This document shows positions 2,723 through 62,418 of a stretch of 64,000 bases of DNA, one piece after another; the stretch's first letter is position 1, and each line of letters begins with the position of its first letter. The translations under genes were made by a program, and so were the position numbers. The notes under the pieces are model-generated. The model worked only from the letters and a program-made list of their open reading frames with translations. It had not been told where the DNA came from and ran no database searches. Source of the DNA: Eledone cirrhosa. Taxonomy: Eukaryota. Location of the stretch: positions 310,620,001 through 310,684,000 of the forward strand of contig OZ024742.1 of assembly GCA_964016885.1 (NCBI GenBank), read 5' to 3'.

Positions 2723-2762
2723 TGGGTTGAAAATCCTATTTTAGGTGAAACACGTGTCCTCG
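2723..2762 (+). ncRNA. Type I hammerhead ribozyme motif, U3-A8 variant
   Basis: tggg-TTGAAAA-tcctattttaggt-GAAA-cacgtg-TC-ctcg; palindromic stem III ACACGTGT; GUC site. Confidence 0.6.
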
Positions 2763-3044
2763 AGTATGGTTTAGTAATTGTTAGGGAATTAACTCTATAC
2801 CAACATTAGATATATACATACTGATGTTTGCCTACTGTATATTAATTATATATATATATGTGTCTGTGTGTATATATATATACATACATAGATATATGCA
2901 TAGATACATATATACGCAGACACACACGTGCACTCACTCACACACACAGATATATATATATATATATTTATATCAATGTATATATTCATACATTTATATT
3001 TACATATATATATATATATATATATATATATATATATATATATA

Positions 3045-3237
3045 ACGAAGGAAATGTGGTAAGGAACCAGGTGGACCATAACGCACCAAAGTACTCAATA
3101 CTTGGGGTAGTAGAGTGGGTAATAGGAACCAGTAAGACCCCGACGGCTGAGCTCAAGCCGTTTCGACGGCTAATTCTGTCCAGAATTAGCCGTCGAAACG
3201 GCTTGAGCTCAGCCGTCGGGGTCTTACTGGTTCCTAT
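3045..3237 (-). mobile_element. Family A PLE-terminus hairpin element in (TA)n
   Basis: Perfect 57-bp arms 3122-3178 / 3181-3237 plus 77-nt unique tail; near-identical inverted copy at 57218-57411. Confidence 0.85.
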
Positions 3238-5260
3238 ATATATATATATATATATATATATATATATATATATATATATAAATTTAGCAAGAATCGCATT
3301 TCGGCGAGTAGAAATTAGCGAAACGCAACTTCCGATTTGTGTTGGCAAGCGCTCCATGGACAAGAAGATACCAGAGCAATAAACATAATTTATAAAGGTC
3401 ATACAAACTGAGACGGTGGTTAAGAAGCTATTAACCGCCTAAACCAAAAAAAAAAACGATCAAGCTAAGCGGTTCGAACAAAATATGATATGATTGAAAT
3501 AGTTACTCGACCCCGTGAAATGATGTTAAAATCTAATACAGGGTTTCTGCGACACCTAAATCAATAATACTGTCTGCTTTAAAAAAATAAGCTTTTGGTG
3601 TAATGATCGAACAAGGATATAACGTTCTCAACAGGCATTTTGTTCTGCGCCAGGATTAGAATCTCACAGTGTTTTGAAAGCACATGTGAACTCTAAAGGG
3701 GAGAAAACCCCAAGTTTTGGCAAATGAATTATGTATCTGTAGTCAATGCAAACATTGCAAAAATAGCACAAAACGAATTAAGCTCTCGGCCGAGTAGTTT
3801 TTATATATATATATATTGAAAGAGTGAAGAATAACATGGTTAACAGTAAAAAATAAAAGCGTTTTATTTACAGTATTAACAATTGCTTCATGGATTAAGT
3901 TGTCTAAAAATTGCTGAACATTTCAAGCTGTGCCATTCAAGAGAACTCACAAACTCGTCACCTACGGAAACCTCTCGTTGAGTCAAACAACGCCGTACGC
4001 TAAAACTATCCGCAATACTGAGTATTCACAACCTCTAACTGGATTACCTATAACGATATTTTGTTATCCCTTATATATATATATATCGCTTTACGCGATT
4101 CACTTGTCCCAATAGCTTATTTTAGTTATTGCTCGCACCAGCCTGAGGTATCTGATTTTTAATGCGATGAAATACCAATGATGGTTGGCAAATCACTGAT
4201 GAGGGACTAATTTTATAATATGTAACCCATGTGCAACCACGCAGTATTCCCCTTTCTTCCCATGTTTTTCATATATATATATATATATATATATATATAT
4301 GTTTCTGTGTGTGCGTATACTTGTGTGTCAGCTTGAGCATGTGTATTTATTTGCTTATATATATATGTGTGAACATGTCACCGTATATGTGTTTATTTTG
4401 GCAAGAGTATCTGTTTTAGTAAAAATAATTTTGTATCTTTGCATTTATAAGTGTTTATGTGCTTAAAACGTACTAGTGAATGGTTCTCATTCCAAAGAGT
4501 GGTACTTTATATGTAAGTATATTGCGATAGTTTTAGATGCGCTAACATATAAACATTCATCACATAGACACAAAAAGATGCAAGTCAGACTGACACACGC
4601 TTATACCACAATACATACGCCACAACTCGAAACCACTCGGAGCCCTATATAGAACAGTGTGTGCGTGCATGTGTGTGTGTGTGTGTGTGCATGTGTGTGT
4701 GTGTGCATGTATGTGTGTGAGAGAGAGGGAGAGAGAGAGAGAGTGTGTGTGTGTGTGTAATTGTAATATACTTCAGCTTTGTCTCGGTTTCCGTGAGAAA
4801 TACATATTGTTTTATATTTAGTTTTATACCTAGGAAACACGTGTCTCTACTCTCTATAACTAACCTTCTTTAGTTCGGTTGAGTTCATCTATTTTTTTAT
4901 TCATTTCGTATCCGATTGAGGACTTTAGCTATTTCAAACAGCCTCGGTAAGACAACATTTCGTCAACACTCACAACTCTCTCTCTCTCTCTCTCTCTCTT
5001 TCTCTCTCTCTCTCTCTCTCTCTCTCTCTCTATATATATATATATATATATATATATATATATATATATATATATATATATATATATACATGTGTGTGTG
5101 TGTGTGTGTAGAAGGTGAGTAATATTGTAGAACAATAAAACTATGCATATATAAGATAAGTAGCACTCAACAGTTGGTAGAACGGGAGTATATATAAAGA
5201 TATGTTGACTGGACACTTCCTTGTTCACAGGTGTTTTTAGGCCTCATATCATGTTACCTT

Positions 5261-5325
5261 ATTTTATCTGATGAGAACACAAATTTTGTCCCAGGATGAT
5301 GTTTTCGAAATGCGCATAATTAAAT
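5261..5325 (+). ncRNA. Type I minimal hammerhead ribozyme motif
   Basis: attttat-CTGATGA-gaacac...gttttc-GAAA-tgcgca-TA-attaaat; palindromic stem III. Confidence 0.7.
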
Positions 5326-59672: not shown

Positions 59673-59713
59673 TATATATATATATATATATATATATATA
59701 TTTATATATATAT

Positions 59714-60968
59714 AATGAAGGAGGTGTGGTAAAGAACAGGGTGGACCATAACACACCAGAGTACTCGGTACTTTGGGTAGTAGAGTCTTAGTCTTAGTTC
59801 CTCCAGTCCCTTGTGGAACATTGGGCGACGAGTTTCATCCACTTGATCCTGTCACTGGCGGCCCTTCTAGCACCTCTGCAGGTAATTCCCATCTCCTGCA
59901 GGTCCTCCCTGAATGTGCTCCGCCATGTTTTTCGTGGTCTTTCCAGTTCTCTCCTGCCACCTTCTGGTACCCAATCCATGGCAATATGAGCAGGTCGATC
60001 TGCCGGCAAACGAAGGATGTGGCCCGCGAACCGCCGTCTCCTTTTCCGGACAATGACCCTTAACCTCTCCAATCCTGACCGCCTCATCACTTCCTCGTTG
60101 CTAACTTTGTCTCTCCATGAAATTTCCAATATGGTCCGAATGCAACGATGGTGGAATACATTAAGCTTGTTACATACACTTTCCGTACTCTTCCATGTCT
60201 CACAGGCATATATCGCTGTTGGTACTACAATGGACATGTAAACACGGAATTTGACGGCGTTGCCGATGGAACACTTGGACCATACCGGACGGAGTCGCTG
60301 GAAGACCGCCGCTGCTTTTCCCAGCTTTGTGCGCACATCCACCTCAGCTTCCCCATCGTCAGAGATGTTGCAGCCAAGGTATTGGAAGTGGTTTACACAT
60401 TCAATGTTACGCTGACCAACCATGATGGGAGGATTTGGAGTGTCACCTGTCGACATGGTCTTAGTTTTTTCACAACTGATGCGCAGGCTAACATTCTCTG
60501 CATTGCCATTTAGAACGTTATCATCTCTTGCAGGTCTTCTCGGGAATGGCCTATCACTGAGATGTCATCGGCAAAGTCCAGGTTGCTTAATCTCCTTCCA
60601 TCCTAACTGATGCCAAAACGAGGGTCACTCATTGACTTCTTCATGATGAAATCGATGACAATGAGGAAAAGGAAAGGCGAAAGGATGCAGCCTTGTCAAA
60701 CACCCGTCAAGATGTCAAACATTTCCGTGTTTCCGTCCTTTGTCCTAACGCAGCACCTAGAATATCGGTACAGCGACCTGAAGATGTTAATATATTCCTC
60801 TGGGACACCGTAGTCTTACAATCTTCCACAATGACTCCCGATGTAGAGTGGATAATAGGAAAAGAGTCAGGATCACGACGGCAGAGCTCAAGCCGTTTCG
60901 ACGGCTATTTCTGGAACCTAGTCGAAACGGCTTGAGCTCTGCCGTCGGGGTCCTGACTATTTTCCTAT
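59714..60968 (-). mobile_element. Family A hairpin element split by an RTE insertion
   Basis: Tail at 59714-59786 continues at 60843; palindrome 60855-60968. Confidence 0.85.
59787..60842 (-). mobile_element. 5'-truncated RTE-clade LINE
   Basis: GV*QGCILSPFLF, LDFADD, FQYLG, YACETW, RFAGHILR; (ACTAAG)2 tail; 7-bp TSD gtagagt. Confidence 0.9.
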
Positions 60969-61743
60969 ATATATATATATATATATATATATATATATAT
61001 ATATATATATATAGAGAGAGAGAGAGAGAGAGAGAGAGAGAGAGAGAGAGAGAGAGAGAGAGAGAATGAGAGAGAGATAGATAGATATATAGTGTGAGAG
61101 AGAGGGGGAGGGAGAGAGGGGGAGAGTGTGTGTGTGTATGTATGTGTGTGGTTTCGAAAGGTTTTACTTGTTATCCGGGCGTTCCAAGCCAATTGCTTCA
61201 TGGAGTCGTAGCTGCTGCAGATTATTATTAGATAGAAACTACGTAATATAACGGCTACGGCATCATACCGTCCGTAACAACCATACCAGTAATTGGTACA
61301 GATCGGTGATCGTTTTACCGGGAAATTTGGGATATAGTTTAGATGGACCGAGCTGAGCGGTTTGAGTTTCGTGAATGAGGTCGAATGTAGGTGTATAGCA
61401 TGTTTGCTTACTTTCGTGATTTGTTTTGGTTTAAAATGGGTGTATTTACGTTGAAGGTCAGGAAATTGGCGGTATTAGTTACATACACACCCGTACAAAC
61501 AAACATGCACATACATATAATATATATACATACATATATACATACATACATATATACATACATATATATATATATTCATATGTATATATATATATATATA
61601 TATATATATATATATATATATATATGAATGTTTATATATAAATACATGTTTATGCATTATGTGTATATATATATGTGTGCTTATGTGTGTGTGTGTGTGT
61701 GTGTATGTGTGTATGATACATATATACATATATATATTTATAT

Positions 61744-62418
61744 AAGCAGAAGGGATATTCAATTTGTTGTTAATTCAACAAATATAAATGTTTATAACTG
61801 ATTCAGAGCACTCGACAGTTTTTCTGGAGTATAATATTCAATGATATTAAATAAATGGAAACTATATTTATAAAACCATATTTATTCTATTATATATATT
61901 TCAAGGGTACCAAAACTTTGGTACGCTTTCATCAGATAAAATACGAAGTGTGTTTTATATATATATATATATATATATATATATATATATATATATATAT
62001 ATATATATATATATATATATTTATTAAAATAACAGATTAAAGTTTAAGCAAAGAATCGCTGCTTTTACCCTTAACGGGATCTTCTGAAACTCAGTTTCAG
62101 AAGATCCCGTTAAGGGTCAAAGCAGCGATTCTTTGCTTAAACTTTAATCTGTTATTTTAATAAATATTTGCTCTACGGTTCTTATATATTTGATATATAT
62201 TTATCCTTATCGAGCCCTCTTTGGATTTTAGTCTTCAAATTTATTATTATTACTATATATATATATATATATATATATATATATATATATATATATATAT
62301 ATAACACACTTCGTATTTTATCTGATGAAAGCGTACCAAAGTTTTGGTACCCTTGAAATATATATAATAGAATAAATATGGTTTTATAAATATAGTTTCC
62401 ATTTATTTAATGTCATTG
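61744..62418. mobile_element. Family B fold-back element with a nested family C fold-back element
   Basis: Outer arms 61839-61954 / 62303-62418 with hammerheads at 61883-61943 (-) and 62314-62374 (+); inner arms 62017-62091 / 62093-62167, tail to 62253. Confidence 0.85.

Follow-up and report, generated by a model that had tools for sequence, protein, structure and literature searches.

The 64,000-nucleotide stretch of the Eledone cirrhosa genome analysed here (assembly GCA_964016885.1, contig OZ024742.1, positions 310,620,001 to 310,684,000; hereafter the window) contains eleven short fold-back palindromes, several families of which can be traced to Penelope-like elements (PLEs). We regard it as probable, at roughly 0.7, that such palindromes consist of two complementary DNAs (cDNAs), which were primed on both strands of the target at two internal sites of the 5' untranslated region (5' UTR) of a PLE RNA, ran off the capped end of this RNA and were then joined.

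Palindromes of the window

With microsatellites masked, a hairpin scan returned eleven hairpins in the window and none in any of 20 Markov-resampled control windows. Nine of these hairpins are elements listed in a preliminary description of the same stretch; two further listed elements with larger spacers (14750 and 61744) were detected by self-comparison of the window, outside the hairpin-scan set, and all eleven listed elements are present at their places. The two other short hairpins from the scan lie at 16844-16883 and 32209-32293 and have 19- and 24-bp arms.

Each element comprises one tailed and one shorter arm and is bordered by microsatellites on both sides. The elements, named here by their positions in the preliminary description, fall into eight sequence groups, or seven if the related groups B and C are merged, in line with the at least six dissimilar families first proposed: A (3045, 50401, 57218 and 59714/60855), B (57706), C (61744), D (14750), E (14151), F (18572), G (50718) and H (62017). 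Loops of 1-6 nt had been described as prevailing and are found in six of the eleven elements, with larger ones in 50401 (34 nt), 60855 (18 nt) and 14750 (about 80 nt), and with TA tracts and the nested element 62017 in the centre of 61744. The loop of 57706 measures 5 nt or 13 nt depending on which of two comparisons is used. The proposed colonisation of (TA)n microsatellites holds as regards TA targeting, except that 50718 is bordered by (TG)n and (CA)n. In the window (61744-62418), and also at L128:2662 and L094:2940, PLE stubs sit inside the TA centre of an older palindrome; new insertions accumulate within earlier insertions.

Arms with two fixed ends and independent lengths

Copies of the families were searched for in 3.0 Gb of genome sequence. 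Family A yielded 138 distinct inverted pairs, with both ends classified in 128; many of the short pairs were drawn from the fold-back listing, and 20 long pairs were chosen for a hammerhead core on both arms. One arm ends at a short end (S) and the other, tailed arm at a long end (L) in 122 of the 128 classified pairs. The short end is a fixed second 3' end, which unpaired, non-palindromic copies use too, and not, as had been suggested, a TA-rich point at which the shorter arm happens to match the target.

Pair sizes are bimodal (110 pairs with at most 60 nt between the two GAAA motifs, 27 with more than 134 nt) and form a continuum up to inverted insertions that bear an open reading frame (ORF). 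Both arms cover the identical 3'-terminal region of the element. Among the short pairs (n=97), the arm reaching further 5' is the tail-less one in 37, the tailed one in 42 and neither in 18; among the long pairs (n=25), whose arms of about 40 to 3,450 nt are joined by a few bases of overlap or insertion, the S arm is longer in 13 and the L arm in 12. The lengths of the two arms are independent of one another. A short arm joined to a long inverted element body was found in none of 25 other arms listed.

These proportions bear directly on the origin first proposed for the palindromes, namely that reverse transcription begins at the tail and yields a single cDNA, which terminates close to the RNA 5' end cut by the ribozyme, snaps back on itself and is ligated through TA microhomology. 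Since a tail-primed cDNA cannot copy beyond its own end, and a cDNA primed at S cannot gain the tail, this explanation fails for about half of the pairs, in which the arm without the tail extends further 5', by as much as about 3 kb. Perfect, loop-free palindromes, moreover, make up only 8 of 110 joints, unpaired copies use the short end too, the extra G described below is present on both arms, and the arms of families A, B and H cross the cleavage site. Snap-back would account for the tight microhomology loops of many joints, for small local fold-backs inside some of them (as in 14750), for subfamily variants common to both arms, and for the centre of 50718, about 8-10 nt 3' of the predicted cleavage site (one comparator), but on balance we consider it quite improbable.

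The two arms nearly always derive from one RNA or one source locus, because 74 of 76 pairs share the subfamily haplotype, against 19.7 expected by random pairing (a comparison from which 62 pairs with rarer haplotypes were left out). One family A pair, L024, has arms of two common haplotypes or subfamilies that differ at three sites, for which a rare two-template event and gene conversion are candidate readings.

Joint diversity and copy number

Among the 110 joints of short pairs, 90 are distinct, and one string is shared by 10; arms are identical over 47 nt in 20, the remainder differing by substitutions. As the joints are mostly distinct, and those repeated span subfamilies and both orientations, clonal spread is disfavoured.

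An exact 35-mer of the family A hammerhead 3' half has 19,235 matches in the genome, fold-backs centred in loop II number 12,728 and the hammerhead 5' core 3,516, the three search patterns being unequal in stringency. Of 152 arms at loci that the 35-mer selected, 118 belong to short palindromes, as do 17 of 23 arms in the spaced and adjacent pieces together with the window. Evenly spaced pieces totalling 300 kb contain ten hairpins of the window's families, assigned by eye, from which we roughly extrapolate on the order of 100,000 palindromes of the window's type per genome.

The exact junction of the tail into the 5' UTR and ORF is retained in only 60 copies genome-wide, compared with the 12,728 fold-backs. 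This disproportion, together with the recurrence of some joints, could be expected if the palindromes were a non-autonomous class moving as a unit like short interspersed nuclear elements (SINEs) or miniature inverted-repeat transposable elements, as the preliminary description supposed. Such a class would not be expected to show so many distinct joints or a size continuum up to ORF-bearing insertions, and the stubs lack the upstream TATA-like region; mobility as a unit is accordingly a highly improbable explanation.

The fold centre and the inferred start site

The arms stop at a fixed point in each of the families A, H and B, so that the centres are non-random, but the point differs in its structural setting. 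Family A arms stop in hammerhead loop II, either at an A that precedes the predicted cleavage site by 41 nt or just inside this A; family H arms stop at the base that opens stem I, 46 nt 5' of that site, and family B arms 117 nt 5' of it, about 58 nt 5' of stem I. Because the arms of all three families pass through the cleavage site, the centre is not set by the ribozyme, and the RNAs that were copied had not been cleaved, contrary to the ribozyme-defined 5' end of the preliminary description.

We take the stop A of the three families to be the A of an initiator-like motif, presuming the usual initiator consensus. In a sample of 293 family A arms without the 5' core, 83 reach this A and 51 end one base short, in a scan that extended to that A only; many arms end 1-6 nt short of it, and almost none passes 3 nt beyond. 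The motif TYAGT stands at the stop in 26 of 30 long family A copies; in this family an AT-rich box is found 29 nt upstream. Two divergent family B copies have a TATA box 32-33 nt upstream of the stop. Start sites inside the pseudo-long terminal repeat (pseudo-LTR) are published for other PLEs, and the initiator-like A is probably the RNA polymerase II start site within the pseudo-LTR. Short direct tandems that restart at the inferred start base after near-ATG sequence occur at L161:930-1480, L274 and L283; they look like, and are consistent with, template jumps of the reverse transcriptase (RT) from the RNA 5' end, which could seed pseudo-LTR tandems.

Family G (50726-50897) is centred about 8-10 nt 3' of the predicted cut site, as judged from one comparator (L040:2523-2570), which has a 3' hammerhead half immediately upstream of the centre. 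In contrast to A, B and H, this family may have used a ribozyme-cut template, and the notion of a ribozyme-set centre might apply to this element alone.

Raw restriction-site-associated DNA (RAD) reads of two other individuals, from one study, contain opposite-strand joints, several of them at the same coordinates in the runs of both. Nine of the 13 joints among those listed (13 of 61) end within 2001-2010, the start base being 2009, and the depth over a native family H copy falls by about half across the start base. The presence of head-to-head joints in raw short reads speaks against an assembly artefact. This read support comes from individuals other than the one assembled, and a library cut inside both family A arms barely covers the centre, which would leave room for assembly or library artefacts; the substitutions between arms, the strict pairing of S with L and the later insertions nested inside speak against them as well, and we give this explanation next to no credence.

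The extra G at the joint

The non-native base before the initiator-like A was tallied by hand for the first 100 matches listed in each search. Family A has G56/A22/C22, compared with G28/A40/C32 in a control 3 nt downstream (p=2e-4), and family H has G53/A32/C15, compared with G6/A28/C66 (p=1e-5); the tally for family B is G45/A9/T46. At 300 family A loci both arms reach the initiator-like A with a non-native end, and in the first 50 of them G stands on both arms in 46, on one arm in four and on neither in none. The window elements 57706 and 62017 display the extra base too. Inspection of 80 G loci showed that nearly all are joints and not native variants, and that the base before the G varies.

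The G may have been copied from the RNA cap, the source given for the extra G at full-length 5' junctions of L1 (PMC11702581). A spliced first exon is ruled out as its source by the variable base before the G. A native G subfamily is likewise ruled out: G precedes the A in none of 28 in-register long family A copies, two more copies being out of register.

It has been argued for rotifer PLEs (Arkhipova 2013), from palindromes at inverted junctions, that head-to-head palindromes arise by self-priming on an antisense transcript (PMC3846280), and palindromic copies could indeed be transcribed both ways. Self-priming of this kind gives no reason to expect that both arms have a G ahead of the sense-strand initiator A, or that arms of independent length should still pair S with L. 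In Eledone the joint statistics favour two sense cDNAs, and we hold antisense self-priming to be very improbable.

Parent Penelope-like elements

Upstream of the family A ends, long copies run through about 1.2 kb of non-coding sequence into an ORF for an RT, a Cys linker and, at the C-terminus, a GIY-YIG domain. A 710-aa open frame from L097 (P0001), aligned to full-length relatives, has the motifs DKT, a CxCX5C linker, CxxC before E and CxH after N, with RWR at the motif where four aligned relatives have RWK; absence of CCHH was judged by eye only. Pfam gave no match for P0001 or for the PLE fragments of the window, and the domain call of P0001 rests on these motifs. The unit is about 3.6 kb long, above the Hydra-clade tendency of less than 3 kb, and 165 of 178 long tails end in TA. 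By its motifs, the parent of A, the commonest family, appears to be an endonuclease-containing (EN+) PLE of Hydra-clade type.

PLE ORFs also lie upstream of the family H end (about 990 nt) and of the B/C-type end (about 1,560 nt), which bears out, for A, H and the B/C group, the proposed origin of the palindromes and tails from GIY-YIG PLEs. No linked PLE ORF was found for D, E, F and G among 11, 46, 7 and 3 arms, respectively, the match for G belonging to a neighbouring element; these four families share the tail hairpin motif and the geometry with the others. This motif, the pair RCTC...GAGY located at the short end or immediately 3' of it, recurs in all eight otherwise dissimilar tails of the window (e.g., 3045-3124, 57706-57810, 62156-62253), with an A-T swapped to G-C in the tail of H. 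The two halves are predicted to pair with a probability of 0.8-1.0 in D, G and H, of 0.15-0.4 in A, B, C and E, and of about 0 in F. The pair is a candidate protein-binding or RT start signal.

In family A the sites S and L lie about 80 nt apart, both in the 5' UTR upstream of the ORF start, and each is followed by TAT. Because the tail runs natively into the 5' UTR, with an ATG about 95 nt after L, the 3' ends of the stubs correspond to internal sites near the mRNA 5' end.

Probable double priming on one RNA

Under the reading that we prefer, a TA repeat is nicked on both strands, and in one insertion event each of the two would serve as primer for a cDNA on the PLE RNA, the template being uncleaved by its hammerhead. 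Both cDNAs would extend to the likely capped RNA 5' end and then be joined head to head, by end joining or by template jumping of the RT, accompanied by trimming, microhomology and small insertions. If the 5'-most copy of the start sites is used, only 57 and 137 nt of template would be left, for which reason the palindromes are tiny, and use of a downstream pseudo-LTR copy would account for inverted insertions that are long and asymmetric. The stubs probably represent dead ends.

A PLE protein studied in vitro nicks and extends both strands, uses two internal start sites that define the tail, and does not require ribozyme cleavage (Frangieh 2024, PMC11167929). A more general form of double priming, in which Hydra-type PLEs are obliged to prime twice, with S and L on opposite strands and cDNA 3' ends joined, and in which its use at the capped mRNA 5' end would have left on the order of 100,000 palindromes with centres that record the transcription start site of each family, is a tentative proposal to which we give slightly less than an even chance. 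It might involve one complex, and perhaps two RNAs paired through the palindromic helix III of the hammerhead.

Several observations weigh against double priming up to a capped end. The start site and the cap are read from the DNA sequence alone; the family A site also matches what we take to be the splice-acceptor consensus, and its TATA-like box is merely AT-rich. Arms that reach 19-21 nt can be explained by several start sites or by untemplated A. At loci that were not picked for the G test the count is G13/A3 against 4/5 in the control (p=0.09), about 6 of 31 inspected G rows can be read, by eye, as microhomology with the partner arm, and the commonest double-G joint can also be read as one cap G with an AG stutter. 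The tally of family B stands without a control search and with one native comparator of its own subfamily. Data on the stop and the G cover families A, H and B, and the centre of family G lies just 3' of the predicted cleavage site. A long upstream pseudo-LTR is present at 11 of 30 loci with the ORF junction, so longer read-through templates exist. The model would require two RTs to share one region of one RNA, and in Frangieh 2024 the two strands start alike (PMC11167929), whereas S pairs with L here.

Some of these observations would fit a variant in which the two cDNAs are likewise separately primed, but in which the stop reflects stalling of the RT or some other processed end of the RNA, and the G is a base preferred in untemplated addition. 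The reading of the start site from DNA, the many arms that end 1-6 nt before the initiator-like A, the likeness of the family A stop to a splice acceptor and the non-significant local G test all leave it some room. Against it stand the position-specific G excess in A and H, the structurally different setting of the stop in each family (loop II, the start of stem I, and about 58 nt 5' of stem I), the initiator-like motif at every stop and the conserved TATA spacing in B, and we consider it unlikely.

Hammerhead content

The preliminary description placed a full type I hammerhead or its half in most arms. A full canonical hammerhead is present in only two of the eleven elements (57706 and 61744); the four family A elements carry the 3' half only, 14151 and 62017 have the full layout with altered cores, and in 14750 the 3' half is joined, in one of the arms, by a degenerate core. 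No hammerhead was found within 18572 or 50718. An Rfam search of the window gave no hammerhead family among the matches listed (150 of 164), only miRNA matches driven by microsatellites. Hammerhead-like motifs lie in the window at 2747, 4834, 15030, 49557, 50266, 57867 and 62355.

Single arms of the window fold weakly as hammerheads (z from -2.2 to 0.0). For the native family A region the fold is a type I hammerhead (z=-1.8) that has a long stem II and either U3-A8 or C3-A8 in its core, U3-A8 being a published variant (PMC4209133). If a stub of B or H were transcribed, its long hairpin would be predicted to bury the ribozyme; with family A palindromes lacking the 5' core, the suggestion of hairpin-ribozyme units finds no support. 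The loops of helix III contain different palindromic hexamers in different families, as would be expected for family-specific RNA pairing.

Comparison with known systems

Inverted copies with a one-sided tail and palindromes at their junctions are published for EN+ PLEs, whose inverted pseudo-LTRs resemble the Eledone elements in the head-to-head 5'-truncated copy with the tail at one end, in the TATA- and initiator-like motifs of the pseudo-LTR and in the microsatellite targets (PMC3846280, PMC8557442). The Eledone elements differ in that about three quarters of the family A arms are ORF-less stubs of less than 200 bp at the inferred start site, and in the tail, which is about 80 nt long here and 30-40 nt there (PMC3846280, PMC8557442). 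With pairs of hammerheads on opposite strands also on record (PMC4209133), the layout is not undescribed, as had been thought possible.

The Hydra clade of Craig 2021 (PMC8557442) shares with the family A parent the motifs DKT, CxCX5C, CxxC before E and CxH after N in P0001, the hammerhead and the (TA)n target. In this comparison, which was made by motifs and without a tree, family A stands apart in its RWR instead of RWK, in its unit of about 3.6 kb, where the clade is generally below 3 kb (PMC8557442), and in a U3-A8 or C3-A8 hammerhead with a long stem II.

The PAc Poseidon element in vitro (PMC11167929) parallels our reconstruction in two internal RT starts, extension of both strands, an uncleaved RNA and an AT-rich target. 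Its sites lie inside the ORF, without target homology and without a difference between strands, and the main text of that report is silent on inverted products; in Eledone the sites lie in the 5' UTR, are followed by TAT, and S is paired with L. L1 twin priming (PMC11702581) is alike in that both target ends prime reverse transcription, with an extra G at full-length 5' junctions and end-joining scars. L1 inversions combine adjacent, nearly non-overlapping parts of the RNA, whereas here the same region is copied twice and an inverted duplication results. Twin priming of the L1 type was rejected as an identification: the arms overlap in the 3'-terminal region, and the process is alike in its use of both target ends.

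Minimal PLE hammerheads (PMC4209133) and non-LTR retrozymes (bioRxiv 10.64898/2026.07.22.740005) share the type I fold with a palindromic helix III, the U3-A8 variant and opposite-strand pairs 100-700 bp apart. Non-LTR retrozymes are head-to-tail tandems with a full ribozyme per unit (bioRxiv 10.64898/2026.07.22.740005), in contrast to the head-to-head elements described here, in which the 5' core is often missing. Identity with non-LTR retrozymes was rejected on the head-to-head pairing and on the family A stubs without a 5' core.

Other features of the window

The coordinates of the palindromes and of further PLE copies are collected in Table 1. The family A palindrome at 57221 is 98% like that at 3045, yet its joint differs. 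The window also contains a broken non-LTR retrotransposon at 25457-30531, with an RT match (PF00078) in 28048-29730, and more pieces of long interspersed nuclear elements (LINEs) at about 39274-42584 and 58828-60840. An abundant SINE-like repeat occurs at 20936-21385, 45400-45660 and about 20 other places; the copies at 20936 form a tandem and those at 45451-45639 an inverted pair.

Table 1. Palindromes, inverted pairs and related PLE copies in the window.
Position	Strand	Feature	Details
3045..3234	-	Family A palindrome	Tail 3045-3124; arms 3129-3178 and 3181-3230; hammerhead 3' half on each arm; centre in hammerhead loop II
14150..14357	-	Family E palindrome	Arms of 74 bp, loop 3; both arms have the hammerhead layout, with a core position altered; no parent ORF found
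14750..15097	-	Family D inverted pair	Arms of 88 bp; spacer of about 80 nt with a small local fold-back; each arm with the hammerhead 3' half; no parent ORF found
18572..18799	+	Family F palindrome	Arms of 85 bp; neither a hammerhead nor a parent found; centred on a hairpin that longer copies also possess
18927..19240	+	B-like single copy retaining the upstream region	TATA-like box 18927; initiator-like A 18960; hammerhead 19024-19074
21978..22140	-	Additional older family A copy with tail	Outside the list of the preliminary description
35291..38827	-	Longer degraded family C PLE insertion	Inverted arms; Hydra-like thumb/endonuclease ORF piece 36862-37791
49512..50392	+	Inverted pair from another PLE family	Endonuclease fragment 49826-50287
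50401..50569	-	Older family A pair	Arms of 23 bp; loop of 34 nt
50726..50897	-	Family G palindrome	(TG)n on one side and (CA)n on the other; arms without hammerhead
57221..57410	+	Family A palindrome	50-bp arms, loop 6; tail at right
57706..58157	-	Family B palindrome	Arms of about 165 bp; full hammerheads 57856-57905 (minus strand) and 58037-58086 (plus strand)
57968..57969	+	Family B joint	Non-native G (57968) directly before the right-arm initiator-like A (57969)
59715..60965	-	Family A pair	Tail interrupted by a later LINE fragment (about 59791-60840) with a 7-nt target duplication
61744..62418	-	Family C inverted pair	Each arm (about 61839-61953 and 62304-62418) with a full hammerhead; TA tracts and element H fill the centre
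62025..62253	+	Family H palindrome	63-bp arms; variant hammerhead core; arms begin at the initiator-like A (62093 plus, 62091 minus); one extra base at 62092, which is G on the minus arm

Implications for PLE integration

The elements are likely a known kind of debris and not a new mobile class, while the mechanistic signature that they carry is likely new: a literature search that covered mainly openly available papers, without the supplements of Craig 2021 and Frangieh 2024, found no report of joints that mark a start site or carry a cap G. The origin of the inverted ends of PLEs is called undefined in Craig 2021 (PMC8557442), and the published explanation that the search met with is antisense self-priming (Arkhipova 2013). 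If true, obligate double priming would explain the inverted pseudo-LTR and the one-sided tail together, and PLE transcription start sites would be readable from DNA alone. The model yields exact predictions, namely the start base in three families, the pairing of S with L and the cap dependence of the extra base, and the thousands of independent joints in a single genome constitute a natural experiment on PLE integration.

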